64,000 nt of DNA from a virus. Lineage: Duplodnaviria > Caudoviricetes. The notes beneath the pieces are model-generated. The model searched no databases. It saw only the letters and a program-made list of their open reading frames with translations, and was not told where the DNA came from. A program made the translations under genes and the position numbers. Positions 1 to 18,126 of the stretch are shown in pieces; the stretch's first letter is position 1; the number at the start of each line of letters is the position of its first letter. Location: the IMG/VR virus record IMGVR_UViG_3300005080_000001, positions 32,001 to 96,000 of that record; one strand, written 5' to 3'.

Positions 1-241
1 GTGCTTCCAATAGGTAAAGCACAAACAATACTCGATTATATCGTATTCCCTAGCAAGGAGGTGGCAGTAGTGCCGTAGATATAATGTGAGGACTAAGCCA
101 AACCGTTTACCACATAAGGTAATCGCTAGGTGGGGTTAAATGCCAATGTAAACCAATTATTATAAATATCACTTGAATATCTAACATTTGTTGGATTTTG
201 AAGTGATATTTATAACTAAACAATGAATTGGAGAGATTAAC

Positions 242-991
242 ATGACATTATTAACAACTCAAAACGCAAAAACAATCAAAGGTGAGAAGAAAGGTTTTAA
301 CACTGGTATTGTTTACCTTGCACCATTCACAAACGGTGGAATGGCTAACTTATGTCCGATGGCTGAACAAGCACAATGTAACAAGGCTTGCTTATACACT
401 GCAGGACGTGGAGCATTTGACAACGTAAAGGCAGGACGTATTCGTAAAGCGGTTTACTTCCAAACAGATTACAACGGATTCATGAATGAACTGGCTTGGG
501 ACATCAACCGACATGTGAACAAATCTCGCAAGGCAGGTAGCACACCACTGATCCGTCTAAACGGGACATCTGACATTATTTGGGAACGAAAAGGATTTAC
601 TCTGGACGAGAAGCATGCTAAACGCATCAACAAACCTGCAGGCTACTACGAAAACATGATGGCTCTGTTCCCAGATGTACAGTTCTACGACTACACGAAA
701 ATTGCAGGTCGCTTCAATGGAAAACTACCTGCGAACTACGACTTAACATTCTCGTACAGTGGTGTTGAGGGCTACCAAAAACAAGTACAGCATGCAATGA
801 AGAAAGGCGCACGTATTGCGGTTGTGTTTCGTGACAGAGAAAAAATTCCTACGGAGTTTATGGGGATGGAATGTGTAGACGGTGACGACACGGATATCAG
901 ACACATTGAACCACAAGGCGTAGTGGTTGCGCTGTATGCAAAAGGTCAAGCGGTAAAAGATAAATCTGGCTTCGTTGTAGACATCGCTTAA
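242..991 (+). CDS. Phage Gp88-like protein (Cys-motif, radical-SAM-like)
   Basis: RBS GGAGAG; CPxAxxxxCxxxCLY, RLNGTSD, FYDYTK, LTFS and DGDxxDxR motifs match the phage gene-product-88 family as I recall it. Confidence 0.65.
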   Translation: MTLLTTQNAKTIKGEKKGFNTGIVYLAPFTNGGMANLCPMAEQAQCNKACLYTAGRGAFDNVKAGRIRKAVYFQTDYNGFMNELAWDINRHVNKSRKAGSTPLIRLNGTSDIIWERKGFTLDEKHAKRINKPAGYYENMMALFPDVQFYDYTKIAGRFNGKLPANYDLTFSYSGVEGYQKQVQHAMKKGARIAVVFRDREKIPTEFMGMECVDGDDTDIRHIEPQGVVVALYAKGQAVKDKSGFVVDIA

Positions 992-1090
992 ACAAAAGTA
1001 TTGCAATTTCTTGAGAGCGCTGATACGATGTTATTGGCGTTCGATTGGATTATTGCAATCCACAAAAAAAATAAAGGTAGGTCATTAAAC

Positions 1091-1657
1091 ATGAAAAACT
1101 TAAAAAAATTAATCGTAAATACTTTGGTAGTAGCAAGCGTGGCACTGTTGCCATCTGTAGCATTCGTAACGGCTTATGAAGGTCACCAAGAAAAGAAAAA
1201 AGTTCAAATCGTACAAGATGGCGACTTGATGGTCGTAAAGGATAGCGACAAAGAAAAATCTACGGTGGCTACACAAGTGAACGTGGTAGACAAGGAAGGC
1301 AATGTGGAAGTAACAAACCTGTTCGACAAGGACGACACGTTCACTCTCGACAAGTCAGAGGTGAAAGAAAAATTACGCAAAGGTGACAACGTCTATGTGA
1401 CTTTCAAAGGTGACTGGGTAGAGAGTGAGAAAAAATTCAACACGGATGACGTGGCATTCTCGGTAGAAAAAAATCACACAACGTTCGTCACTGTCCAATC
1501 GGTGAGCGACAAGGATGCGTTTGCACTAGATATGACAGACCCTCACAGCAGTGAGTACGCTCTTGACCCAACTGGGCTAAAGGTAGGCGACATCTTGGAA
1601 CTGAAAGAAAATAAGTACGGAGAGGTGCTTGAGCAACACGTAGTAGCACCTCAGTAA
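1091..1657 (+). CDS. Secreted/membrane-anchored hypothetical protein
   Basis: RBS AAGGTAGG before ATG 1091; basic N-terminus and hydrophobic signal/anchor. Confidence 0.7.
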   Translation: MKNLKKLIVNTLVVASVALLPSVAFVTAYEGHQEKKKVQIVQDGDLMVVKDSDKEKSTVATQVNVVDKEGNVEVTNLFDKDDTFTLDKSEVKEKLRKGDNVYVTFKGDWVESEKKFNTDDVAFSVEKNHTTFVTVQSVSDKDAFALDMTDPHSSEYALDPTGLKVGDILELKENKYGEVLEQHVVAPQ

Positions 1658-1727
1658 TAAGCGAAAAATTTACAGGCAAAGAAATGTTTTAAGGCAAACC
1701 AAAAAAAATAAAGGTAGGTAATTTAAA

Positions 1728-2297
1728 ATGACAAACTTAACAGCAAACACAACGGTAGCAGTGGATGAATTAACAGTGGCGGTAGAAGAGAAAAAATATT
1801 GGCTAGTAGATTTACAAGACCACGAGAACACTCGTGAGTCTACGCTTGATGATGCAAAAGAATTTTTGAAAGGTCACTTCGATGAAGAGGATTACGATGT
1901 ATGCGATGACTGCGAGGACTTCGATAAAACTAGCGAGGAGTTAATGGACGAACACTTCGAGCAAATTGACAACGCTGACTTTGACGAACTGCACGAATTT
2001 CTTAGTTGCATCGGTTGGACAATCTTCGAAGACAAAGAAGAACTTCGTGAACATGTGGAGTGGGAAGCGCTGAAATGGAGCGTTGAGAAGGCGCTGAAAA
2101 AAGAAGGTTACGACCACATGCTTTGCACAAGTGGCTTGATAGAAGATACTTTGCTCTGGTATGCAGTCAAGGACAATGAAAAATTAACAGTGAGAGTAGT
2201 ATTCACAGAAGGTGAAGAGGCAGGGAAAATTTCCATCGAGGACACGATAGAAGGCAAAGAGGATTGGGTGTTCAGAAAGAATACGAATACCCTTTAA
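1728..2297 (+). CDS. Acidic hypothetical protein
   Basis: ORF with RBS; very D/E rich; CxxC. Confidence 0.75.
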   Translation: MTNLTANTTVAVDELTVAVEEKKYWLVDLQDHENTRESTLDDAKEFLKGHFDEEDYDVCDDCEDFDKTSEELMDEHFEQIDNADFDELHEFLSCIGWTIFEDKEELREHVEWEALKWSVEKALKKEGYDHMLCTSGLIEDTLLWYAVKDNEKLTVRVVFTEGEEAGKISIEDTIEGKEDWVFRKNTNTL

Positions 2298-2357
2298 GCG
2301 AAAAAAATTAGGCAAAGAAATGTTCTGAGTTAGACCAAAAAAACAATTAAGGGAGTT

Positions 2358-2645
2358 TTGAAAATGATAGCAAGTTTACCAGATGTAAAAAAATCTTTGA
2401 AGGGAAAAGCAAAGAAGGGACACCTAATTGCTAAAATCCACGTTGGTATTCAAGAATTTGGCGAAGGGTTTGACGTTTGTGTGGATGCTTGGATGTTTGA
2501 TAAATGGATGAATGATGATTTTGAAAGCTACCAGATGTCAGAGGAAGAAAAGTTTCCAAAGGCAGAGGCAAGAGCAAAAAGAATTGCAGAGTCATTGGTG
2601 AGTGCAGGATACAAAGCAAAATATACTGGCTTAGAAAATTGTTAG
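2358..2645 (+). CDS. Hypothetical protein
   Basis: ORF after repeat B with GGGAG RBS. Confidence 0.7.
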   Translation: MKMIASLPDVKKSLKGKAKKGHLIAKIHVGIQEFGEGFDVCVDAWMFDKWMNDDFESYQMSEEEKFPKAEARAKRIAESLVSAGYKAKYTGLENC

Positions 2646-2657
2646 GAGGAAAAGAAA

Positions 2658-2750
2658 ATGGTGAAAGAATTCGTTGGTGTAGGTGTTGTCATAGCTTTTC
2701 TGTACGGTGTTATGTGTCTTCTCTCTCTGGGTATCACAGCTAGTATGTAA
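2658..2750 (+). CDS. Small single-TM peptide (30 aa), not in ORF track
   Basis: AGGAGG RBS; MVKEFVGVGVVIAFLYGVMCLLSLGITASM; followed by repeat B. Confidence 0.6.
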   Translation: MVKEFVGVGVVIAFLYGVMCLLSLGITASM

Positions 2751-2820
2751 AGCGAAAATTTTACAGGTCAAGAAATGTTTTAATGTCTAAACTAAAAAAA
2801 ATACTGGAGCGTGTTCAAAA

Positions 2821-3795
2821 ATGAAAATTGTAAAATCTATCGTAAATGCATTAACAAAGGCAGAAGCAAAAAGAGGCGTAGCAAGTGTGGCAACTGTTCG
2901 CCAAGATACAGTAAGAAAAGCAATTGAGCGTGGAGAGTTCGAAAAAATAAAATGTGCATACAGCATGACTGATGACTACGCTTGGGATGCTGTAAACAAT
3001 AACGGTTGGAAAGATAATGTAGGTCAAGAAACAATGGCAAGAGAATACAGCATCTTAACGCCTAGCTGTTGGGTGTCACCAAAAAAATTCATCATCAATG
3101 GGATTGAGTGCTACGAAATTAGTATCAGCTTCCATAGTAATCTAGCGTATGACATGTATGTCCCAGTTGACGGAAAAAAATCTGAGCCAGTAGTGAAAGA
3201 GGAGGAGAAGAAAGTGGAAGCTGTAAAAGAAGTAGAGCAAGTTGAGGTGGTTGAAGAAAAAAATTACATCGTCATGAATGCCCAAGATACTTGCGATTGG
3301 TCTGAGGGCAACATTGAGCATGTAAGGCAAGTTGTGCTAGACAATTGGGATAAGGTTGAATGCGATACTCTTGAAGAGTACGATGCACTGCTAAAACATA
3401 TTCCAACTGCTGACATTGACGACTTGGATTTGGAAATGTGTCTAGAACAAATTGAACACAGAGTGTTCTGTAGCTACGAAGAAATGCTTGATTGGCGCAG
3501 AGAGTTAGGGATGGAAGTAGATGAAGACGAAGAACCAGAAGAAAATAAATGTACCTTCTGCGGTAAAACTGATACTTGTGATACAAAAAATGTAGGTGGC
3601 TATGAGGTTTTAGAATCCTGCACAGACTGCGAGAAAGAAATTTTGGAAGGCAATGAAGAAGATGAAGTGCCAGAAGAACTCTACCTGTGCAATGGTTGCG
3701 ATGAAATGTATCACGAAGAAATGTCAGAGGGTGAATGTTGTGAAGGAAAAGATTTTAGAATCGTAAGCAAAGGCGACATGGGATTCCACGATTGA
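2821..3795 (+). CDS. Hypothetical protein with acidic, Cys-rich C-terminus
   Basis: ORF with GGAG RBS; several CxxC pairs. Confidence 0.75.
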   Translation: MKIVKSIVNALTKAEAKRGVASVATVRQDTVRKAIERGEFEKIKCAYSMTDDYAWDAVNNNGWKDNVGQETMAREYSILTPSCWVSPKKFIINGIECYEISISFHSNLAYDMYVPVDGKKSEPVVKEEEKKVEAVKEVEQVEVVEEKNYIVMNAQDTCDWSEGNIEHVRQVVLDNWDKVECDTLEEYDALLKHIPTADIDDLDLEMCLEQIEHRVFCSYEEMLDWRRELGMEVDEDEEPEENKCTFCGKTDTCDTKNVGGYEVLESCTDCEKEILEGNEEDEVPEELYLCNGCDEMYHEEMSEGECCEGKDFRIVSKGDMGFHD

Positions 3796-3888
3796 GCCGT
3801 GGCATCCTTCATTAGTTAAAGCAAAAATTTACTGATCAAGAAATGTTTTAAGGCAAGACAAAAATAAAAATTAAGGGAGTTTTGAAAA

Positions 3889-4269
3889 ATGTTAAACAAT
3901 GTATCTCGTACTGTTGGTGAAGAATTACTAAGCCGTATGCAAGGAAATGACGTTGTGGGAGTGCTAAGAATGGACTTAGTTCACTCATACAATCATGATA
4001 TGGAGCAGGTAAAAAAAATGTCTGACGATGAGGTTTGCTCATTAATGGACAGATATGAAGCAATGGAAAAAGGTTACGATGATGAATTCGATGAAGGAAA
4101 ACTTCCGCATCATATCGCTCATGTGAAATGTGAATGTAGTGCAGAATTGGTAGTTGTACACGTAGATTGTGAGACTCGTGGAGATTGTGAAATATATGTC
4201 TGCGAGTGTAAAAATCCTGCGTGTGATAAGGAGACATCAATGTGTTATGCGGAAGAATGGTATGAGTAA
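3889..4269 (+). CDS. Hypothetical Cys-rich acidic protein
   Basis: ORF between two B repeats; GGGAG RBS. Confidence 0.7.
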   Translation: MLNNVSRTVGEELLSRMQGNDVVGVLRMDLVHSYNHDMEQVKKMSDDEVCSLMDRYEAMEKGYDDEFDEGKLPHHIAHVKCECSAELVVVHVDCETRGDCEIYVCECKNPACDKETSMCYAEEWYE

Positions 4270-4337
4270 GCGAAAAAAACTATGCCAAGAAATGTTTTAA
4301 TGTCTTTTTGAAAATAAAAATTAAGGGAGTTTTAAAA

Positions 4338-4511
4338 ATGAATAAAGAACTTATGGAAAAAGCAATTAAAGCGATTGGGCAATTAGTAAATGAAGCGCAC
4401 AATGTAGACTGTGAAGAAAAGGACAATGCAGTCAAAGAAGGTTGGGAAGTACTTGAGCAACTAATCAAGAGTGAAGGCACTGACAAATTTAAATTCTGGA
4501 TTGAACAATAA
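4338..4511 (+). CDS. Hypothetical protein
   Basis: RBS AAGGGAG before ATG 4338. Confidence 0.65.
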   Translation: MNKELMEKAIKAIGQLVNEAHNVDCEEKDNAVKEGWEVLEQLIKSEGTDKFKFWIEQ

Positions 4512-4539
4512 AAAAACTTTATGAAGGCAGGTAATTAAC

Positions 4540-4848
4540 ATGGAAAAAACTTTTCAGCAAGAACTTGAGGAACTAATTGCAAAGCATGCTATTCGCCAAG
4601 AGGACACAGGCTCTGGCTACTTAGTTGAATTAAAAAATAATGAGTGTATCCAAATTGATTTAATCAATGAATCTAACGAGTTAGAAAGATTCGAGGAAGA
4701 AGGCGAAGAGAAAGACGAATGGGTTTATGTCTGTGCCGACTGCCTAGAGTCACACGATGAAGAAGTGGAGAAATGCTTTGGATGCGGTAGTGATTCAATA
4801 TCTAGCATGACAAAAAGCGATGAACAGTTGTTCAAGTACGGTAAATAA
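4540..4848 (+). CDS. Acidic Zn-ribbon-like hypothetical protein
   Basis: CxxC...CxxC; RBS present. Confidence 0.65.
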   Translation: MEKTFQQELEELIAKHAIRQEDTGSGYLVELKNNECIQIDLINESNELERFEEEGEEKDEWVYVCADCLESHDEEVEKCFGCGSDSISSMTKSDEQLFKYGK

Positions 4849-4933
4849 TAGCGAAAAAAAAATATAGTCAGCCTATTAATTTTATAGGTTGACTTCAATA
4901 CTATTACAGTGATAAAGTAAAGGGGAAATAAAA

Positions 4934-5176
4934 ATGATTAGATTATTAATGGATTGGTTAGAAGATGGAGTAAGCAAGGAAAAAATTACAGGGTATGCGT
5001 TATTATTCAAGAAGCAAGTGTCATGCGAAATGAACCTAAACAGCAAGCTGAGACTGTATTCAGCATTTATTGAGCATGTTTCACTAGGACAAGCAGAACT
5101 TCATGTAGTAATCCAAGAAACAGAAGTTTTAATACATCACGAGGGAAGAATGATTAAGCGCTTATTGAGTATCTAA
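4934..5176 (+). CDS. Hypothetical protein
   Basis: ORF with AGGGG RBS. Confidence 0.6.
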   Translation: MIRLLMDWLEDGVSKEKITGYALLFKKQVSCEMNLNSKLRLYSAFIEHVSLGQAELHVVIQETEVLIHHEGRMIKRLLSI

Positions 5177-5228
5177 AGGGAAAAATTTTATGATCAAGAA
5201 ATGTTTTAAGGTAAAGGGGAGAAAGAGT

Positions 5229-5453
5229 ATGGCAGTCAACTATAAAGATAAGTTCGTAGGAATAAAAATTTATGGCTTTTGCAATGGCTATTTTGGTAGA
5301 GACGATTATGATGATAAAGTTATTATTGCAAGTGGTAATGATTGGATTGTAGGAGTAGATAACCAAGGAATAAATTGCTTTGCATCGTTCCGAGGGGAAG
5401 AGGATAGCATGGAAGAACTGATAGGCAAGTGGAGTAAAGAAGAAGATTGTTAA
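5229..5453 (+). CDS. Hypothetical phage protein
   Basis: ORF after repeat B; GFCNGYFGRD motif. Confidence 0.65.
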   Translation: MAVNYKDKFVGIKIYGFCNGYFGRDDYDDKVIIASGNDWIVGVDNQGINCFASFRGEEDSMEELIGKWSKEEDC

Positions 5454-5496
5454 TACTTGCTCTGGTAACTAAAAAAATATGAATGGAGAGATTGAT

Positions 5497-5883
5497 ATGT
5501 TAAAAATTCAATGTACTGCATGCGATGGTTTTGGGAATCAAAAATTTATTGAGGGTGAAGGATGGGTTTGTCAGTGTAAAGAATGTGACGGAGGAGATAA
5601 AGTTGCTCCAGAAGATATGAAAGTATATGTAACTGTATACAAGGTTACTAGAGAGTTTGGAGGACATGAGGAAGGCGGTTGGTGGTTTAACTGGTACACA
5701 TGCCTTGAGACAATCCCATGTAAAAATAAATTTTCAGATGAAATTAAAGCTGATTTGTTAGAAGAGTATAAGGGTATGAAGCACGGAGATATCTATTCTG
5801 TGCTAGGTGGCGCTGATGTACAAGTATGGATTGAGCGTAGACCTGCAGAGAATGAGACAAAAGAAAAACCTATGTATGAATAA
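5497..5883 (+). CDS. Hypothetical protein with CxxC pairs and GGHEEGGWW motif
   Basis: GGAGAG RBS; ORF track. Confidence 0.7.
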   Translation: MLKIQCTACDGFGNQKFIEGEGWVCQCKECDGGDKVAPEDMKVYVTVYKVTREFGGHEEGGWWFNWYTCLETIPCKNKFSDEIKADLLEEYKGMKHGDIYSVLGGADVQVWIERRPAENETKEKPMYE

Positions 5884-5907
5884 GCGGAGGGCTTCGGCTC
5901 TCCTTTA
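5884..5907 (+). terminator. Probable intrinsic terminator
   Basis: GGAGGGC-TTCG-GCTCTCC hairpin followed by TTT. Confidence 0.55.
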
Positions 5908-5977
5908 AGCAAAAATTTTATGATCAAGAAATGTTTTAATGTCTTTTTCAAAAATAAATATGGGGGCATGTTGAGAA

Positions 5978-6136
5978 ATGTTTGGTTTCCAATTAGGGCA
6001 AAAGGTTGACACAAAGCGAGGAACTGGAAGAGTTGCAGGCTTCGACCCAAAGAGTGGGTACTGCATTGCGGTTGTATTAGATTCTGACCAAGGAACAATT
6101 TGGTGGTGCAGAAGAGAAGGTTTATTAGTTAGATAG
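5978..6136 (+). CDS. Small hypothetical protein (52 aa), not in ORF track
   Basis: MFGFQLGQKVDTKRGTGRVAGFDPK...; follows repeat B. Confidence 0.5.
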   Translation: MFGFQLGQKVDTKRGTGRVAGFDPKSGYCIAVVLDSDQGTIWWCRREGLLVR

Positions 6137-6573
6137 TACATAATTAAATGAATAAAATCTGGATTTCATTAAGAGGGGGAAAATAAAAATGCCGTATCGT
6201 CATTTCAAAAAAAATATGGACACCATTAGTTATGTTTCACATCTATTTCTTCGAGGATTTAGCCACTGGGGATATATACATGAAAACGAAGAATACTCAT
6301 AGAAGATTAATTTGGAAGAGAAAAAATTTTTAACATTTTAGTTCAATACTATTACAGTATTGAAGAAAGGGAAAATCAAATGAATTTAATAATAGAAGAA
6401 GAAATGGTAAAGAAAATTCTCTTGGTCAGAGGTCATAAACCTAATGACAGAAACGTTAAAAAGATAATGAAGGAAATAAATCTTTGGTCAAATGACCTAG
6501 TAGAGAATTTGATAGATATTGCAGTAACATCAGCAAATAGAAATAAAAATATCTAATAGATGGAGAGACAATC

Positions 6574-6972
6574 ATGAAATCTACAAATAAAAAACAAAAG
6601 CTAAAGCTTCGTCCATGGGTGAAAGTTGTAATGTTATTCGTAGTAGGCGTAGCTATCACAACAAAAATTTTCTCAGTAATGAATACATCAGCATCAACAG
6701 AAGAACCGCAAAATAAAATTTATCATGGTGTCGTTCGGCTCGATAAGGATGGTAAGTATGAATTGTCTATGCTAGACGGTATGTACAAAAAAGAAATTAA
6801 GGTAGATAAGAAAAAAGATTATGAACTGGGTGGAATTGTTAGTGTTGTGACTGATGGTGATAAAGTAGTAAATGATTACTCATGCAAAGGCAAAGAACTT
6901 TACGGAGTTGTTGGTAAATATAAATTTGAGATAGACTCTGTGAGAAGAGATGTAAAAGCACAGGTTGAATAA
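6574..6972 (+). CDS. Membrane-anchored hypothetical protein
   Basis: Basic N-terminus and one TM; GGAGAG RBS. Confidence 0.7.
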   Translation: MKSTNKKQKLKLRPWVKVVMLFVVGVAITTKIFSVMNTSASTEEPQNKIYHGVVRLDKDGKYELSMLDGMYKKEIKVDKKKDYELGGIVSVVTDGDKVVNDYSCKGKELYGVVGKYKFEIDSVRRDVKAQVE

Positions 6973-6982
6973 TAATCACACC

Positions 6983-7020
6983 ATAACTACCCTTATGTGT
7001 TTAGGGGTAGTTATATTTTT
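6983..7020 (+). terminator. Intrinsic terminator
   Basis: ATAACTACCC...GGGTAGTTAT stem followed by a T tract. Confidence 0.7.
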
Positions 7021-7192
7021 ATTGTATTACTAAATTGTCAAAAATTACTTGAGAAATATTCCTAATTTATATTCATTTTAATTTTACAGATTTTTATTGT
7101 AAGCGTATAATTAACCTAGTTGAATGATTTGATAGACTTGTTAAATTATGTTAATTAATAATTATCTTTGATAGAGAGTTAGGTGTGATAAC

Positions 7193-7948
7193 TTGAAGTT
7201 TGGACAAAGATATAAAGGAAGGGGAGAAGTGTCTCCATTAGCTGATTATGTGCAATTTGACATATCTGGACTTAGTGCAATAGAGATAGTTCAGAATTAT
7301 TTTATACTAGACATTAATAATAAGCCTATTCTACTTTTAGGAGATTACTCAGACGAAGAAAAGGGATCTTCCGAGGATGATATGCTCAAGGCAGATAGAA
7401 TATACGAAATTAAAGATGCAATCAGTAGTCTTCGAGCATTTGGGGCAGAGATTATGGGTATAACCATATATCCATTCTCTAGAGAAGGGCTATATTCCCT
7501 TAGTAGGACTATAAAGTTTGATGATTTTATATTTAAACTTAAAGAAATATATGATATTCCAGTGTTGGTTAGGAACTCAAATAAAAAAGATTTGTTTTTA
7601 TCTACCTCAGAAGAGATTATTAGGTTTAGTCAAAAAAATAAAATTGCAATATCTCCTATGAGCCTTTTTGAAGCGTTAGATTATGATTTAGATAAGTATC
7701 TTGATACAGTTTTAAATATAAATCTAGAAAATATTCAAGAGATTCAAATCAGAACTACTAGTTGTTGCATGAATGAATGTGAGAGTAATTATGATAATAA
7801 TCAAGAGCATACTTTATTTAGGTTAAAGGATTTTTATAAGAAATTGAAGATAGTTCCTTGGTTTACGTTAATGCTAATGGGTTCTGGAGGTAGCGGAAAA
7901 TCATTTGAACTTAGCGTAAAAAAGATTACTGACCGTTTCGAAGATTAA
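7193..7948 (+). CDS. Hypothetical protein, possibly degenerate DUF692/TIM-barrel-like
   Basis: YDLDKYLDTVLNINLENIQEIQI resembles the DUF692 C-terminal motif; weak. Confidence 0.45.
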   Translation: MKFGQRYKGRGEVSPLADYVQFDISGLSAIEIVQNYFILDINNKPILLLGDYSDEEKGSSEDDMLKADRIYEIKDAISSLRAFGAEIMGITIYPFSREGLYSLSRTIKFDDFIFKLKEIYDIPVLVRNSNKKDLFLSTSEEIIRFSQKNKIAISPMSLFEALDYDLDKYLDTVLNINLENIQEIQIRTTSCCMNECESNYDNNQEHTLFRLKDFYKKLKIVPWFTLMLMGSGGSGKSFELSVKKITDRFED

Positions 7949-8035
7949 CTGTCAGTAATCTTCCTCTATTAAGCAAAAGTATTGCTAAAAATAGAGGGCG
8001 GTGATATAATTACCAGTAGTAAAACAGGAAGTTAG

Positions 8036-8387
8036 GTGACATTATTTTTGGAGATTCAATTATTAATAGATATGATGTTTGAGCATATCAAAAAGACCAA
8101 GTATAAAATTATTAATCTCAACGATGTATCTGAGATTTTAAAAGAAAAGCTTGGAGAAGATTATAATTCTGAGATCGGAATTTCTGTTAAATCTTCTTTG
8201 AGAGAACATGATTCCCTAGATTTTTTTTAAAGAGGGAGATTATATCAGCAATCAGAAATTTCATTATTGTGCAGGGAACTGGCTCGCTATCAAGGGAGTA
8301 TATGAGAATCCTATTGAGGCTAAAGATAAGATGGGTTGGTATTCTTGGCAAGAGACAGCAGAGATTGACTGGGATAGCTTAGATTAA
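8036..8387 (+). pseudogene. Hypothetical gene split by one extra T in a T8 run (8221-8228)
   Basis: Removing one T extends the ORF (...DFFKEGDYISNQKF...WDSLD) to TAA at 8385-8387. Confidence 0.55.
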
Positions 8388-8408
8388 ATAAATGGAGGAT
8401 AAGACATT

Positions 8409-8591
8409 ATGGCAACTATGACAGGAAGAGAATTAGCAAAAGAAATTCAATCAGTAGACAAAGGGTTTAAAGCACCACACATGTCCCGTGCAGAGTACAA
8501 CAATATGATGTATGGCGTGGGCAAAACGAAGGAAGACTTTGATAAATATTGTGAGGAAATGAGTGGAGAAGTAAAGACTTACAAACTCTAA
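8409..8591 (+). CDS. Small hypothetical protein
   Basis: GGAGG RBS; ends SGEVKTYKL. Confidence 0.65.
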   Translation: MATMTGRELAKEIQSVDKGFKAPHMSRAEYNNMMYGVGKTKEDFDKYCEEMSGEVKTYKL

Positions 8592-8722
8592 TCAAAGCAA
8601 AAGTATTGCAAAATATTTCGAGGTTAGATGGCTTAACCTTTTTTATTGACCATCTAACCTCAATACTGTTACACTATTGAAGAAATACATATGAAAAGAA
8701 TTCATTCAATGGGGGAACAGGT

Positions 8723-9340
8723 ATGAACAAGTTTAAGAAAATCGCAATTTATGTTGTAGCAGGTATTGCCGTACTCTTTATCGGAAGTGCTATTGGCTCA
8801 TCTGGAGCAAAGGCTACAATTGATAAGAAACAGGTAAGCATAGCGGACTTAGACAAGGAAATCAAAAGCAAAGAAGCTGAATTAAATAAACAGAAAGACA
8901 AGAACAAAGAAGTGCTTGATATTATTGCACATAAAGATAAGTTAGTAGCAGACACTGAAAAGGCACAAAAACAACTAGATGATAAGAATAAAGCAGTATC
9001 AGTTGCTCAAGGTGAACTAGATAAGATAAGTGCAAAGTTAAAAGAGAAGGAAGATAAGTTGGATGCTGTTACTGTTGGGCTTATAAAGGCAGAAGGCGAA
9101 CCAAAAACTCTTGGCTCTGGTGAGTATGTAGTTGGCAAAGATGTTCCTGCAGGCAGATACAAAGCAACTCCAGTTGGACAGGGGTCTAACTTCGTGGTAT
9201 ATGACAGAGATGGTATTGCAGTTGTAAATACAATCTTAGGAAGTTCAGACACTGGTGGAACTGGTGACTACACGTTCTTCTGTAAAGATGGAAATAGAAT
9301 TGAAACACATGCACCAGTTAAATTAGTACCAGTTAAGTAA
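8723..9340 (+). CDS. Membrane-anchored coiled-coil protein with C-terminal beta domain
   Basis: TM segment, coiled coil, and GEYVVGKDVPAGRY motif. Confidence 0.75.
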   Translation: MNKFKKIAIYVVAGIAVLFIGSAIGSSGAKATIDKKQVSIADLDKEIKSKEAELNKQKDKNKEVLDIIAHKDKLVADTEKAQKQLDDKNKAVSVAQGELDKISAKLKEKEDKLDAVTVGLIKAEGEPKTLGSGEYVVGKDVPAGRYKATPVGQGSNFVVYDRDGIAVVNTILGSSDTGGTGDYTFFCKDGNRIETHAPVKLVPVK

Positions 9341-9460: not shown

Positions 9461-9793
9461 ATGACTAGGCTAGAAGAGTTTGGTAAACACATCAAAGAAC
9501 TAAGGGAATTAAACGGATTTAAGAGCCAGAGAAGTCTCGCTGACACTCTTGGAGTTTCAAATGCTACGATCGCTAGAATCGAAAGAGGAGAAGTAGAGGC
9601 TAGTGTTGAGACAATCAAAAAGATGGCAGAAGTGTTTCATATGGATTATATGGATTTAGTGGCAAAGCAGGATATTGTTCTTAAGTCTGGAAGTGAATTA
9701 TTAAATGAGAAAATCCAAAAGTTAAGCAAGGCTCAAGTTGAGATAGTTAATAGCATGGTAGATGAGTTCCTTAGATTAAGCAAGAAGATATAG
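9461..9793 (+). CDS. Xre-family HTH transcriptional regulator
   Basis: IKELRE..SQRSLADTLGVSNATIARIERGE HTH; promoter TTGACA-17-TATAAT at 9381-9409. Confidence 0.9.
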   Translation: MTRLEEFGKHIKELRELNGFKSQRSLADTLGVSNATIARIERGEVEASVETIKKMAEVFHMDYMDLVAKQDIVLKSGSELLNEKIQKLSKAQVEIVNSMVDEFLRLSKKI

Positions 9794-11439: not shown

Positions 11440-12381
11440 ATGGCAGATATTAAAAAGCTTGAAGATAAAGTGGTAAATGCAGAAGCAAAGGTTGAAAAGT
11501 GTAAAGGTACAATTGAAAGACATAAGAAGCAACTTGATAAGAAGATACAAAAGGTAATCAAGGAAGTAGGCTTGGACTTAACTGGTAAAAGTAAGGAAGA
11601 GATTGACGAACTTCGTGAGCCTTATAGAACAACAGAGCATTCTTGGACGATTTATGAAGTAGTTAATAAGCTTGATGATATTAAAGGTGCTGAGAAGAAG
11701 CTAGGTGAAGCTGAACATATTCTTGCAAACTGGAGAGAGAAACTTGATATCGAGGTTAACCGTGAAAAGTTCATTCAAGAGAACGCTCCAAAGGTGATCG
11801 TGGAATTCTTAGAAGAGTGGAAGAAGTTAGCATACGAGTGGTATATTAAACGATACAATGATTATCAAGAATTTAAGAATAAGCTGAGAGTAAAACATGA
11901 TAAAGAGATTATATCGTTTGTAAAATCCCATCCAGAAGATTTTGAAAGATACTTGGAAGACGGAGAGATTGCAAGTTACTGGGCGAACAGCCTAGGTAAT
12001 ATCCATGGAGCAGGATTGAAAAAGCATATGGAAGAGAAGGGCTTAGATTATAGCAGTATGAATGAGAAGAAGGCTAACTTCGCAGGTGGAGCAGTAATGT
12101 ACATGGATAGCATCTACGATGAAGAGAAACGACTAGTATGGCTAGAGGATACACTTGAGCAAGAGAGAAAGGCAAAACTATTAGACCTAATCTTCCGTAT
12201 CAGCAAAGTAGTTGGGGAGATTGAAGATGCTACATACCTAAAAATAAATGAGAAGGGTAATCTTGACGGGTTTGTAATTGGTGACAAAGGAAAGGCTCGT
12301 GTCGAAACAATTGGAGCAGGCGGTTGGAATATCCAGTGTTGGCACTACAGAACATTAGTAAAACCAGTTAAAGAGGCATAA
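11440..12381 (+). CDS. Coiled-coil hypothetical phage protein
   Basis: Long ORF; C-terminal ETIGAGGWNIQCWHYRTLV. Confidence 0.8.
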   Translation: MADIKKLEDKVVNAEAKVEKCKGTIERHKKQLDKKIQKVIKEVGLDLTGKSKEEIDELREPYRTTEHSWTIYEVVNKLDDIKGAEKKLGEAEHILANWREKLDIEVNREKFIQENAPKVIVEFLEEWKKLAYEWYIKRYNDYQEFKNKLRVKHDKEIISFVKSHPEDFERYLEDGEIASYWANSLGNIHGAGLKKHMEEKGLDYSSMNEKKANFAGGAVMYMDSIYDEEKRLVWLEDTLEQERKAKLLDLIFRISKVVGEIEDATYLKINEKGNLDGFVIGDKGKARVETIGAGGWNIQCWHYRTLVKPVKEA

Positions 12382-12474
12382 GTAAGCGATGGGTGTTGAC
12401 TTTACCGACAGCACCCATTATATTTGAAATAATACTTCAATACTATTAAAGTAAAGAGGATGAGGAGAAGCGTT

Positions 12475-13257
12475 ATGAATATTGAACAGATTTTTATGGA
12501 TTGTCACGGGGCTATTTCCATGGCAGATGTAGTTTCACTTGAAGATATCTATTTTAGCAAATCACTGGTTGAGCAGTTTGGACTCCCAGAAAGTCCAGAT
12601 GAATTTGTAGATTATCTTGGAATTAATCTATCAGATGTTTACTTAAATGAAGGAAGCTTCTTTAATCGATTTTCATATGTGAAGGGCTTTGTAATGGTTG
12701 ATATTCCTTCATTTGAGTTAGAACACTTAAAGACATTTATGGTCAAGGAACGTATTGAATATATATCTGGTGTCATGAATAAGCTACTAGACGAAGGGAA
12801 GTGGGGTTCTATTTTCTCACTCATGGAAAAGAAGCTTTTACTCCCTAAGTTTGTGGAAATTTATCGTGAGATCCCAGAAGATAAGATTGTAGATATCTTC
12901 TCAGAATTATGGGTGCGATCAGAATTCGGATTTGATATGATTACCGAGGATATAATCAAATATGTATATAGCTTTAAAGAGCAATCAGAAAGCTACAGAG
13001 AACGCAGAGAGAGACTTTTGAAGCTGGCAGATAGTAATGGGTATCTAACTGTTTATCATGGTGATACAACAGAAGGAGTTAATGATGACTTATCATGGTC
13101 ACTAAGCGAAGAGACGGCTCAATGGTTTGCTAATCGATTCGATAACAATGGCGACATTATGAGTGCGAAAGTCTTAGTAGATGATGTTATTGATTACTTC
13201 GACTGGAGAGGCGAATCAGAGGTACTTATCTTTCCAAAGGATGTAAAACGTGAGTGA
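12475..13257 (+). CDS. Hypothetical protein with C-terminal ADP-ribosyltransferase-like motifs
   Basis: LTVYHG...LSWSLSEETAQWFA...GESEVL spacing resembles the R/H-S-ExE ART fold. Confidence 0.5.
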   Translation: MNIEQIFMDCHGAISMADVVSLEDIYFSKSLVEQFGLPESPDEFVDYLGINLSDVYLNEGSFFNRFSYVKGFVMVDIPSFELEHLKTFMVKERIEYISGVMNKLLDEGKWGSIFSLMEKKLLLPKFVEIYREIPEDKIVDIFSELWVRSEFGFDMITEDIIKYVYSFKEQSESYRERRERLLKLADSNGYLTVYHGDTTEGVNDDLSWSLSEETAQWFANRFDNNGDIMSAKVLVDDVIDYFDWRGESEVLIFPKDVKRE

Positions 13258-13605: not shown

Positions 13606-13682
13606 GGTGGTAATATTTTTATTGACTATCTACTTCAATACTATTATAGTAATGAATATAAAATATAGAGGAGTTGTTACAT

Positions 13683-14702
13683 ATGTTAGCAATGAGCAAT
13701 AAGATTACTCATATCAATGAAGACCAATTGGAGGTAGCAGAGGTGTATGAATCATTTTTAACATCTAATGCACGTAATTCTGAAAAGACAGCAGTCGAAT
13801 ACCAAAATAGGGTAGAAGAGTTCTTTCGTATCGTAATTTCTAAGGACATTAAATTTGTAACACTGGAAGATATCCAGAAAATCAAACATAGCCACGTTAA
13901 GATGTATGTAGGAGAATTAACTGATCGTGGGAATTCAGATAAGACAATCTCATCAAAGTTGTATACGGTAAAGAGTTTCTATAACGAAATGCTAAAGAAT
14001 GAGTTAAAAGTTAACCCAACAATCTTTAAGATTAAGCTGAATATAGAAGAGAAGCACCATGAGGCACTTTCGTTTGAGGAACTAGATGAGTTGTATCGAT
14101 TTATGTTAGAAGATGAAAAAGAGAAGAACCTTGAGAAGTATTTGCTCCTTAAAACACTATTCACTACTGGCAATCGTAGAAGCGCAACGTTCAAAATGAC
14201 TTGGAAAGATAGCTTCATGCAGAAGAGAGATGTTAGTACTGGTCAACAGGTTTGGGTTATTAGAATTCAAGATAAAGGGAAGAAGTGGTCTGAGAAGCCA
14301 ATCCCAGATGAGTTCTATGAGGAACTACAACAATTGAATCAAGGTCAAGATAAAGTATTCTCAATGTCTCCTATAACTATTGAGAGGGCATTAGAGAGGT
14401 TTTCTGAGAAGTTAGGTAAGAAGATTACAATGCATTCAATGAAAGCTACGGGAGTAACCTTAGGATATCAATTAACAAAAGACATCAATCTTTGTAAGCA
14501 ATATGCTTCTCACGCTGATATATCAACTACGGCAATCTACCTAAGAGAAGAGAAGTCATATGTAAATCAGTTAAGTTATAACATGTCCAGAAAACTTGAT
14601 GAGTCTAAATTACTAAATATGTCTCGTGACGAATTAATTGAGTTCATCATGAATAAAGATAATACAGACATCAAGAATTCAATCCTCTTGAGATTGGGTT
14701 AA
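13683..14702 (+). CDS. Tyrosine recombinase/integrase-family protein (SPbeta YopP-like position)
   Basis: SAM-like N-domain; TGNR, HSMK (HxxR variant) and SHADISTTAIY motifs. Confidence 0.88.
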   Translation: MLAMSNKITHINEDQLEVAEVYESFLTSNARNSEKTAVEYQNRVEEFFRIVISKDIKFVTLEDIQKIKHSHVKMYVGELTDRGNSDKTISSKLYTVKSFYNEMLKNELKVNPTIFKIKLNIEEKHHEALSFEELDELYRFMLEDEKEKNLEKYLLLKTLFTTGNRRSATFKMTWKDSFMQKRDVSTGQQVWVIRIQDKGKKWSEKPIPDEFYEELQQLNQGQDKVFSMSPITIERALERFSEKLGKKITMHSMKATGVTLGYQLTKDINLCKQYASHADISTTAIYLREEKSYVNQLSYNMSRKLDESKLLNMSRDELIEFIMNKDNTDIKNSILLRLG

Positions 14703-15511: not shown

Positions 15512-15727
15512 AAACGTTGATATAACAATATTTATGAAGGAGTTGACAAAAATGAGAAAGACAAGAAAAAAATAACAATTTATTAAAAAAAAGTGTTGCA
15601 ATTAACCATTTTATGTATTAATATTAGAGGCAGATAGGGAATACGAGTTGTCCAAAAAAGAATGACATACATAAGTAATTATAGAAAATATCATAGCAAA
15701 CTTATAATTCACAGGGGGAGATTTATA

Positions 15728-17044
15728 ATGACGACTAATATTAATTTTGAAAAGGTTGAAGAGGTATCTGCTAAACTTGATTCCACATTAAATGGGATCA
15801 GCCATATATCAGTATTAAAAGATAGGTTCGAAAATGCTTTGAATGAAGTAATTAGTTCTGATAAAGTTAAAGAAATTCTAGATAGTAAATCAATTAAAAA
15901 CTTAAATCCAGATGAGACAATATCTTTCTTTAGAGTTATATTTAATCAAATCAAAGACGAATCATTTAATCCAACTAATTTTATAATAGAAGAAAAACCT
16001 AAAACTATAAAGAAACCTAAAAATGAATCAGAAGCTGAAAAGAATAGATTAAAGAAACTAAAAGCAATTAATAACTCAAATGTATTTCATCCTAAATTTA
16101 AAGACAAATTCTTAGCTGAACATCGCAATGCTGATGGTAATCCATATGCTGATGAGACAAAAAGGGTAGCGGTTATCCTTTTTGGTAAAGTAGGCGTTAT
16201 TGAAAAACATTATAATAAAGATATCTATGACTTTAATGCAGACCAATTCGAAGAGGTTTTAGTATCTCTTAAGGCAAGTACAATTAGAAGCCTTCAAAAT
16301 TCTATCTCTACTTTAGAACAATATATAGACTTTGCAATTGCAAATGATAAAACTAAAAAAGGCAATGTAGCTACTCAATATAATAATAGGAAAGAAATAT
16401 CACAATTCTTAAATAAACAAGCAGAAGAGAATATGTTCTTCTCAAAACATGATATTAATACACTTGCTGAATATGCTGAAAATGCTCAAGATGGAGTAAT
16501 ACTTAACTTAATTTTTGATGGAATTAGCCATAAGAATAAATTTATTGAATTAATCAACCTTAAAATTGATGATGTAGACTTTGATAACATGGTTATTAAT
16601 GTACCAGAATTAACAGATACAGTAACTGGAGAGATTTTCCCTCCAAGACAAGTTCCTATGTCTGAGTCTACAGCTAGAACAATTAGACAGGCAATGAACT
16701 TTGAAGAGAAGTATGTGAGTCTTAATGGTAACTCTAGCCGTAGATATGCGATTGCTCAAAGTGAATATATCTTAAGAGGTCTTCGTAAGAACTACCAGAT
16801 TAAATGGGAAAATGTTAACCAAAGAATACTTCGTATCGCAAATATAAATGATGAAGAGTTTTTAAATGCAACTAATATTGCATATAGTGGTCAAGTTCAT
16901 TATGCTAAAGAGCAAATGCAAGCAGGTTACAGCATGGATGAAGCAATTAGATATGTTATTAATCGTTTTAATATGAGTGACAATACATCAACTTATTTCT
17001 ACATTAAGCATCGCCTAGAAACTGCAAATAAAGTGCTTTCTTAA
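15728..17044 (+). CDS. MrpR/YopR-like phage repressor (catalytically degenerate tyrosine-recombinase fold)
   Basis: KDIYDFN...STIRSL..SISTLEQYIDFAI and NAQDGVILNLIFDGI..ELINLK match SPbeta YopR/MrpR as recalled; catalytic R and HxxR absent; an Xre gene follows, as with yopR-yopS. Confidence 0.75.
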   Translation: MTTNINFEKVEEVSAKLDSTLNGISHISVLKDRFENALNEVISSDKVKEILDSKSIKNLNPDETISFFRVIFNQIKDESFNPTNFIIEEKPKTIKKPKNESEAEKNRLKKLKAINNSNVFHPKFKDKFLAEHRNADGNPYADETKRVAVILFGKVGVIEKHYNKDIYDFNADQFEEVLVSLKASTIRSLQNSISTLEQYIDFAIANDKTKKGNVATQYNNRKEISQFLNKQAEENMFFSKHDINTLAEYAENAQDGVILNLIFDGISHKNKFIELINLKIDDVDFDNMVINVPELTDTVTGEIFPPRQVPMSESTARTIRQAMNFEEKYVSLNGNSSRRYAIAQSEYILRGLRKNYQIKWENVNQRILRIANINDEEFLNATNIAYSGQVHYAKEQMQAGYSMDEAIRYVINRFNMSDNTSTYFYIKHRLETANKVLS

Positions 17045-17338
17045 TATAATATTGGATTTCTATAATCATCCCTACACGGTTACATCCTAGCCTGTAGGGA
17101 TTACTACTTTATATGGTTTATTTTACAATACAAGGATGTAACACCATTAATTACAATGGAAATAATTACATTAAAAATATGACGGATATTCTATTGAATA
17201 TTGTTTCTTACAATAGTATAGTGAAAAAGTGGTCAACATCCAGTTTATTTTTTCTCAATGAGTCATCTCGGAGATGAATTATTCATCTGACAGATGGGCA
17301 TACTGCAAATGCGCTAGAGCAAGAATTGAGTTAAGGAT

Positions 17339-17713
17339 GTGTTATTGTTGAAGGTTGAAATTGGTGAGTATCTCAGATTGAAGAGATTAGAAAAGAGACG
17401 AACCCTTGGAGATATAGCTTCCAAAGTCGGTGTTTCAGCTAATTACATCTCAGAAATCGAAAAGGGGATGAAGAACAACCCTTCCGATGAAATCATCGTA
17501 AAATTAGCCGAAATTTTCAATATCAATGAAGATGACTTGTTCCAAGGTTTTGATAGAACACCGTTGTCTGTAAGAAATGAAATTAAGGCACATCCTAGTT
17601 TAGCCAAGGCACTGTCTGAATTAAACCATGACGATACCATTGACCAAAAGCAGAAAGAGGAATTTTATAATAAACTGGTCTACTGGTATAAGAAAATAAC
17701 AGAAGACAGCTAG
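17339..17713 (+). CDS. Xre-family HTH regulator (YopS-like position)
   Basis: TLGDIASKVGVSANYISEIEKG..NPSD. Confidence 0.9.
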   Translation: MLLLKVEIGEYLRLKRLEKRRTLGDIASKVGVSANYISEIEKGMKNNPSDEIIVKLAEIFNINEDDLFQGFDRTPLSVRNEIKAHPSLAKALSELNHDDTIDQKQKEEFYNKLVYWYKKITEDS

Positions 17714-17733
17714 GAAGAGGTGTATTGTAAATA

Positions 17734-18126
17734 ATGTCTGTTCTAGAAATTATAGAAGCTAGGCACTTCGCAATCGCAGTAGCGTACTTCCTTTTGGGAG
17801 GACTTGGATTCGCTTATTTTTTAACATGGTTACTTAGAAATAAGATTAAAATAGATCATGAACTAAATAGTGGCGATACTATTCGTTTAACCGATAAACT
17901 CGGTAGAATATGGATTATTTGCAATCCTTCAAATTTAGTACAGCTTACAAACGCTATAATATTGTCATTCAGCAAAAACGGTAGTGGAAAGGTCATCGAC
18001 AAGCAGACCAAGAGGAGAACAAGAGTCATAGCGATGCTTATTTTCTGGTCGTTGGCATTGTTACTAACATTGGCACTGTGGTTTACATTGGATGCAATAG
18101 AGTATGATGACCCTAACATACCGTGA
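17734..18126 (+). CDS. Two-TM membrane protein
   Basis: Hydrophobic helices at N- and C-termini. Confidence 0.65.
   Translation: MSVLEIIEARHFAIAVAYFLLGGLGFAYFLTWLLRNKIKIDHELNSGDTIRLTDKLGRIWIICNPSNLVQLTNAIILSFSKNGSGKVIDKQTKRRTRVIAMLIFWSLALLLTLALWFTLDAIEYDDPNIP

Follow-up and report, generated by a model that had tools for sequence, protein, structure and literature searches.

What purpose is served by a repeat that stands between one small gene and the next, seven times over, in the early region of a phage? The question arises in a virus of the class Caudoviricetes (IMG/VR record IMGVR_UViG_3300005080_000001; 132,518 bp, rated complete), of which bases 32001–96000 were analysed; this stretch of 64,000 nucleotides (nt) is called the window, and its coordinates are used below unless another locus is named. 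The repeat copies span 1655–5977. An earlier reading of the letters (the sequence-only reading) had taken them for either an integron-like gene-shuffling array or a set of promoters for a phage-encoded sigma factor or RNA polymerase. We find that they are stop-to-start linkers, here called junction units, which resemble the promoter-early stem-loop (PeSL) elements of T4-type phages in being portable and in joining independent ORFan cassettes within a variable (hyperplastic) early stretch. Each unit contains a conserved box, Box 2, that is tentatively read here as a site recognised on the DNA.

The seven copies were recovered by a direct-repeat search and a pattern search, all in the same orientation on the + strand, so that the number given from sequence alone holds. 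Six share an identical 14-mer core, and copy 2 (2315–2328) carries a variant allele with two changes. With up to two mismatches allowed, the window contains 12 matches against 3.3 expected by chance, a number that none of 100 shuffles reached. Across the whole record, only the six exact cores and the one variant are present, all inside a 4.3-kb block, and the Box 2 motif was not found in the other 128 kb of the genome. A sequence-based model of the unit, made from 14 units and run over 555 kb (the phage window plus relatives), gave at least 23 bits for true copies and at most 11 bits for everything else.

Each unit is a linker of roughly 70 bases with the order stop codon, Box 1, 5–8 variable nt, Box 2 (AGAAATGTTYTRA), A-rich tail, strong Shine-Dalgarno site and ATG. 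Box 1 consists of GC, a purine, an A-run and a short T-run. Box 2 is the invariant 13-base box, usually with KGT directly after it, and the A-rich tail that follows is ~20 nt long. The repeat is bipartite, the offset from Box 1 to Box 2 being kept at 16–18 nt, and Box 2 lies 19–67 nt from the true start codon. In five of the seven units the start falls in or at the stop codon upstream, in two (copies 4 and 7) ~22–25 nt past it, much as the sequence-only reading had described, and the A-rich tract and Shine-Dalgarno site that it placed after every copy are present in all seven. It had also called the intervening open reading frames (ORFs) small and unrelated; in agreement, no Pfam or PHROG family is common to them, and the one pair compared directly (189 versus 324 amino acids, aa) showed no detectable relationship. 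The tails and ribosome-site regions of several units are near-identical, which shows recent copying or conversion. An orphan Box 1, reduced to its A-run, stands at 4849–4862.

Structure is absent from the units by every measure applied. They have no dyad, no stable RNA fold (z-scores −1.25 to +2.2, with three of the seven well above shuffles) and, on either strand, no attC-like fold as single-stranded DNA (−0.8 to −2.8 kcal/mol, every z-score positive). Rfam returned nothing relevant for window 1–9000 at E up to 5 and nothing at the gathering score for the whole window. The core is no palindrome, which corrects the sequence-only reading, where it had been aligned to a palindrome family (family D).

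The evidence that the units are places of exchange comes from close relatives, which are contigs of public runs with ~97% identity. Comparison of ten loci that encode an identical 132-aa flank protein gave three array variants. Variants II and III are without cassette E (126 aa), which is gone through a clean 450-bp difference, the two sides of the joint sharing 23 nt; as the relative retains copy-4 sequence past Box 2 and then continues with the copy-5 tail, the tail downstream of Box 2 is where the crossover took place. At the position of the orphan Box 1, close relatives have an extra unit copy and 744 unmatched bases; this extra block in variants II and III comprises a unit, a 98-aa ORF, a hammerhead-like spacer and a 117-aa ORF, and it joins on the left where the A-run of Box 1 ends. 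Variant III has three further differences: an extra unit plus 65-aa ORF, flanked by 26 identical bases that include Box 2; an unrelated 40-aa ORF that substitutes for ORF H, starting right after Box 2; and an inserted 152-aa ORF with a different spacer (motif A, described below), the junction being at the ATG. Pairwise blastn against the relatives gave a mosaic of 86%, 90%, 96% and 99% identity blocks that change at units. Units and linkers, <10% of the region, hold about 7 of the 11 block boundaries. Box 2 changed at 0 of 117 sites among the close relatives and the tail at 19 of 180. Cassettes are gained, lost and replaced at the units among near-identical relatives, and the units are real exchange points. 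The cassette-like array of the sequence-only reading is confirmed in this respect, since the relatives, which it had proposed to compare for gene gain and loss at the repeat, differ by whole cassettes of unit plus ORF.

The features of the block and its borders are as follows.

993–1029, + strand: a copy of motif A that overlaps the −35 element of the array's head promoter (TTGCAA at 1001–1006, 17-nt spacer, TACGAT at 1024–1029), as read by eye
1091–1657, + strand: cassette ORF A, 188 aa, signal-peptide-like N-terminus, no family
1655–1727, + strand: junction unit 1, with stop, Box 1, Box 2 (1679–1692), A-rich tail and Shine-Dalgarno site
1728–2297, + strand: cassette ORF B, 189 aa, no family
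2295–2363, + strand: junction unit 2, with the variant Box 2 (TTCTGA for TTTTAA) at 2315–2328, an allele kept in a distant lineage
2364–2750, + strand: cassette ORFs C (93 aa) and C2 (30 aa, hydrophobic)
2748–2820, + strand: junction unit 3, Box 2 at 2770–2783
2821–3795, + strand: cassette ORF D, 324 aa, acidic, with a Cys-rich C-terminal segment
3816–3888, + strand: junction unit 4, Box 2 at 3838–3851, ~22 nt past the TGA stop at 3793–3795
3889–4269, + strand: cassette ORF E, 126 aa, the one missing from array variants II and III
4267–4337, + strand: junction unit 5, Box 2 at 4287–4300
4338–4848, + strand: cassette ORFs F (57 aa) and F2 (102 aa), a block 86% identical to close relatives with flanks at 90–96%
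4849–4862, + strand: orphan Box 1, where variants II and III have a full unit and ~800 bp (98-aa ORF, hammerhead-like spacer, 117-aa ORF)
4889–4918, + strand: sigma-A-like promoter inside the block (TTGACT, 18-nt spacer, TAAAGT with TG), over which a palindromic operator-like sequence lies
4934–5176, + strand: cassette ORF G, 80 aa
5174–5228, + strand: junction unit 6, Box 2 at 5196–5209, the ATG following after a tail of only 19 nt
5229–5883, + strand: cassette ORFs H (74 aa; replaced in variant III) and H2 (128 aa, phrog_30656)
5886–5903, + strand: GC-rich hairpin with a UUCG loop, then TTT (terminator-like), directly before unit 7
5904–5977, + strand: junction unit 7, Box 2 at 5926–5939
5978–6136, + strand: cassette ORF I, 52 aa
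6983–7014, + strand: strong intrinsic terminator closing the variable block

The promoters of the block are the motif-A promoter at its head (1001–1029) and internal ones near 4889 and 6330. A palindromic operator-like sequence (TCAATACT, 5 bases, AGTATTGA), at 4895–4915, 6341–6362 and 8658–8680, lies over three sigma-A-like promoters, and an XRE-type regulator gene is found at 9461–9793. Close relatives have 112 other bases in place of 71 bp upstream of the GP88 gene (window 146–218) and ~74 extra bases at the end of ORF I (about 6118–6124). In a more distant relative (run X14), the common sequence starts only at 6118.

How the cassettes move could be explained by the integron-like model of the sequence-only reading, in which the identical spacers of the repeat would serve exchange by a tyrosine recombinase; the units would be the sites cut and rejoined by the enzyme encoded at 13674–14702, and the cassettes would travel as circles. 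The arrangement invites such a model, with single cassettes bracketed by direct repeats, close relatives that differ in cassette content, and an Xer-like tyrosine recombinase with most catalytic residues present encoded 8 kb downstream of the array. As in integron attC/IntI arrays, the small cassettes are co-oriented and each is bounded by a repeat. However, there is no IntI (the recombinase scores 46.2 bits against TIGR02249, for which the cut-off is 265, and better against Xer models), no folded attC-type site or inverted repeat on either strand, and no fixed crossover point, junctions occurring past Box 2 in the tail, where Box 1 ends, at the ATG and within ORFs. Orthologues of the recombinase are also present in relatives without units. 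The prophage may be extrachromosomal and plasmid-like; on such an element an Xer-like enzyme is ordinarily a dimer resolvase, so this one would have a role in dimer resolution. The integron model, which we consider highly improbable, is largely refuted on three defining features, namely integrase type, folded sites and fixed crossover. Variable crossover points are what is expected of general or microhomology-mediated recombination, and cassette exchange here is ordinary homology-driven recombination at shared linkers, as in PeSLs, with no new recombination system.

In T4-type phages, PeSLs serve as mobile regulatory cassettes whose defining parts are a stable stem-loop terminator and a sigma-70 promoter of consensus type (PMC2839356, PMC4122927). 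The units share with them the succession of stop codon, AT-rich stretch, Shine-Dalgarno site and ATG, the position ahead of ORFans in a hyperplastic early region, the bounding of indels and replacements between near-identical phages by the repeats, and recombination driven by homology between them. Unlike PeSLs, they have no −35/−10 pair, are unstructured (an upstream hairpin is present only at copy 7) and carry a 13-nt invariant box instead of promoter and stem-loop. The array is therefore a structure-less, box-type form of such linkers in an SPbeta-style phage. It adds a Gram-positive, SPbeta-style case to the view that phages assemble fast-changing accessory regions from standard gene-swapping linkers, and in this case such a linker need not be a promoter plus hairpin.

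The phage itself is temperate, of SPbeta style and ~132 kb in size, and its host is a low-GC Gram-positive bacterium. The early and replication arm, in which the units lie, runs rightward; the late arm runs leftward and continues across the ends of the record. All large ORFs of the window are on the + strand. The phage encodes a DnaE-type polymerase, a RecD2-like helicase, a ribonucleotide reductase, a ligase, and an MrpR-like recombinase-fold protein at 15662–17044. In addition, a 346-aa sigma-like protein is encoded on the minus strand at 17062–18102 of the genome, outside the window (phrog_5767, E 8e-37; weak Sigma70_r4_2). Two overlapping motif-A copies form a promoter upstream of the sigma-like gene (L167:1474–2514), and its orthologues in relatives are just 42–43% identical. 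In three isolate assemblies, the element is on contigs of about phage size (L288, 135,297 bp; L291, 135,017 bp; L292, 134,188 bp), which suggests the extrachromosomal prophage considered above.

Motif A is a second junction element of this genome. It is a 13-mer (CAAAAGTATTGCA) with about 70 copies genome-wide, in both arms and always co-oriented with transcription; those of the window lie at 993, 7974, 8598 and about 35 more sites. Its copies are placed either at the −35 of sigma-A-like promoters of the form TTGCAA-17-TAnnnT, as carried by the late operons, or 0–8 nt before ribosome sites. Motif A is absent from about 1000–7900 of the window, i.e. from where the units stand. It resembles SPBRE, the operator to which MrpR, a master repressor with a recombinase fold, binds in Bacillus phage SPbeta (PMC10516654). 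What we refer to as SPBRE is a repeated motif that was derived here from the SPbeta genome upstream of published MrpR ChAP-seq (chromatin affinity precipitation sequencing) peaks; as it stands just before ribosome sites or promoters, the same two placements as motif A, motif A was considered its positional counterpart.

Relatives beyond the close ones indicate how far the unit extends. Three distant complete relatives (G001, G002 and G004), syntenic and with 40–85% protein identity, have neither the GP88 gene nor Box 2; in the homologous region of two of them (G001 and G004), A/T-run elements like Box 1 stand immediately ahead of ribosome sites. Five units are present in another lineage (L307, L319 and L320), whose backbone proteins are 40–55% identical to those of the phage. 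They lie between ORFs without homologues in the window phage, include the TTCTGA allele, and agree with the window phage at Box 2 over as many as 19 nt. Both alleles stand between unrelated ORFs in L319. The constancy of Box 2 across close relatives and this lineage means that it is under selection or moving horizontally. In L319, unit 5 follows a hairpin and a T8 run (L319 about 7730–7765) and heads the operon that in the window is driven by the promoter at about 6330, and motif A has a one-base variant form (GAATTGCAA). Within the array of this locus, as in that of variant III, a motif-A spacer is found in place of a unit-type spacer.

Intercistronic spacers of related arrays also contain the core of a type II hammerhead ribozyme (GGCGAAAC, hairpin, GUC, hairpin, CUGAUGAG). 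Such spacers are at L319:4499–4565, L289:7835–7937, L291:7758–7861 and G001 69348–69445 (L145:9348–9445), and none of them is in the window. The L319 spacer has all core bases and scores 26.9 bits against Rfam Hammerhead_II (E 0.16), below the gathering score. The copy found in variants II and III, in which an additional U follows the CUGAUGA core, may be inactive. The window phage misses the cassette that bears it, and the orphan Box 1 is what is left.

Broader searches added little. Megablast of the region against phage and plasmid collections gave no match, tblastn of the cassette ORFs against phages gave nothing useful, and scans with the unit pattern gave single chance matches only in viral contigs and GTDB genomes and, in metagenomes, one true relative (L307) among chance matches. 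The two extended Box 2 alleles, scanned in viral contigs, gave unrelated coding matches only, or none. A word-index homologue search with the 132-aa flank protein returned only the self-match, and an exhaustive search with a 251-aa flank protein returned loci of other lineages that have no units. Two loci chosen on the basis of GP88 (L024 and L025) were rejected, as their architecture is unrelated. In four unrelated metagenome loci (L301, L303, L310 and L312), the Box 2 14-mer is the 3' end of a conserved 15-codon ORF that ends Lys-Glu-Met-Phe-stop just upstream of a gene; this likeness is probably a coincidence.

What, then, would read the box? We propose that Box 2 would be the recognition site of a sequence-specific trans-acting factor, and that it would be read on the DNA as a site of transcription control, either as an operator or roadblock or as a site for a transcription-restart factor; as a by-product, the shared units would supply the homology at which cassettes shuffle. 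As a putative DNA-read site of this kind (operator, roadblock or factor-dependent restart), Box 2 has, in our estimate, a substantial chance that nonetheless falls short of even. This reading was put forward on account of the slot: like motif A at about 70 other junctions, the units follow the stop codon, precede the ribosome site and are co-oriented with transcription. The likeness to SPBRE and motif A extends to the asymmetry of the unit, to its location in a short intergenic space, close behind the stop codon and either shortly ahead of a ribosome site or at a promoter, to the presence of an MrpR-like protein, and to Box 1, which has the first 9–10 bases of motif A. The unit is, however, twice as long, and its specific half, Box 2, is unrelated in sequence to motif A. 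Comparable short asymmetric repeats, found at many junctions and oriented with transcription, are known from mycobacteriophages: the 13–14 bp stoperators of Cluster A, which are genome-wide (PMC6550527), and the start-associated sequences of Cluster K, which lie just upstream of starts, include the ribosome site and have no known function (PMC3203893). Hosts, sequences and proteins differ from those of our case, and the units differ from SPBRE and stoperators in being confined to window 1655–5977 rather than genome-wide.

Several observations weigh against a DNA-read site. No protein that binds Box 2 was identified. The unit is limited to one 4.3-kb block, in contrast to the genome-wide motif A. 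The array's three recognisable promoters already bear other operator-like motifs, so that an extra roadblock is not obviously needed. Two unit families stand directly after terminator hairpins (window 5886–5903 and L319 about 7730–7765), a position which fits a promoter better than a roadblock. In relatives, hammerhead-like ribozyme spacers stand in the slot of the units, in keeping with a role at the RNA level. A wider form of the proposal, that the predicted reader would gate each cassette junction, appears doubtful to us; it could take the shape of a second operator system beside MrpR and motif A (e.g. with a second recombinase-fold protein), of protein-dependent RNA cleavage that could stand in for the hammerhead ribozymes at that slot in relatives, or of a ribosome relay at AUG-UUY-stop.

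Among the rival readings is a promoter outside the sigma-A type, dependent on an activator or on an alternative or phage sigma factor, which would make every cassette its own transcription unit, as in the T4-type PeSLs. Such a promoter would account for the bipartite layout with its 16–18-nt offset, for the TG, one base and TTTAAT or TTTAAG in Box 2, which resemble an extended −10, for the terminator-like hairpin before unit 7 and the hairpin with T8 before unit 5 of L319, whose operon has a recognisable promoter in other lineages, and for the sigma-like gene of the phage (phrog_5767). A scan of the units with the sigma-A consensus found no conserved hexamer pair, hand reading agreed, and the sequence-only reading was right that the repeat contains no sigma-A −35/−10. 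Nor is there a −35 at workable spacing, the sole −35-like hexamer (TTTACA, in two to three copies) being 13–15 nt away; the −10-like hexamer has no conserved A at position 2 and misses its final T in half of the copies, and the TTCTGA allele, conserved in two lineages, ruins it. An uninterrupted run of 13 invariant bases is not what sigma-type promoters look like, the motif is missing outside the block, and the late operons, which would be the expected targets of a phage sigma factor, use motif-A promoters. No homologue of a YonO-type polymerase was found in the phage, and a promoter for one was rejected on this ground. We consider a promoter unlikely. None of the Bacillus sigma-factor and regulator consensus sequences considered (SigB, D, E, F, G, H, K, L and ECF; CodY, Spo0A, CtsR, AbrB, LexA and ComK) is known to fit consistently, and these comparisons count as leads only.

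If the unit acted in the mRNA instead, it could be a site of protein-dependent processing (e.g. RNase Y-type cleavage 3' of the Box 1 G) or of a translational regulator, uncoupling the cistrons as hammerhead ribozymes in this slot do in relatives, or the two-codon AUG-UUY-stop in Box 2 could be a relay for re-initiation. The units are unstructured and always co-oriented with transcription, spacers resembling the type II hammerhead stand at equivalent junctions in L319 and similar ones are present in variants II and III and in G001, Box 2 looks like the start regions of the genes themselves, and both of its alleles read Met-Phe-stop. The last point counts for little, as it concerns a single change in one allele pair with a chance of preservation of ~1/9, and most copies have no Shine-Dalgarno site for the mini-ORF. 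At 19–67 nt from the true start, Box 2 is too distant for simple occlusion; moreover, no candidate RNA-binding protein, complementary RNA or Rfam family match was found, and an action in the mRNA was judged rather unlikely. Other RNA- and translation-level candidates were rejected outright: an RNase III-type or terminator hairpin within the unit (no structure), an antisense partner RNA (near-chance matches only) and a C-terminal extension by frameshift (on inspection, the frames differ among copies), as was an attC-like fold, by the folding of single-stranded DNA. The box might also have no function, one ancestral linker having been copied along with the cassettes and appearing conserved while the copies are young. 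The near-identical tails and ribosome-site regions of several units agree with this, but Box 2 is invariant while the inter-box spacer and the tails diverge, and both alleles persist between unrelated ORFs at 40–55% protein identity, which makes a functionless box improbable.

With Box 2 read, tentatively, as a site on the DNA, the 13-mer offers a concrete handle for finding the missing regulator of the early and accessory genes, and the presence of motif-A operators, units and hammerhead-like spacers in one junction slot amounts to a natural experiment on junction elements. Further downstream, array variant II differs from the others in one more respect: it alone has a free-standing GIY-YIG endonuclease gene (L291:15837–16496 and L293:15837–16496), inserted between the homologues of window ORFs 11440–12381 and 12460–13257.

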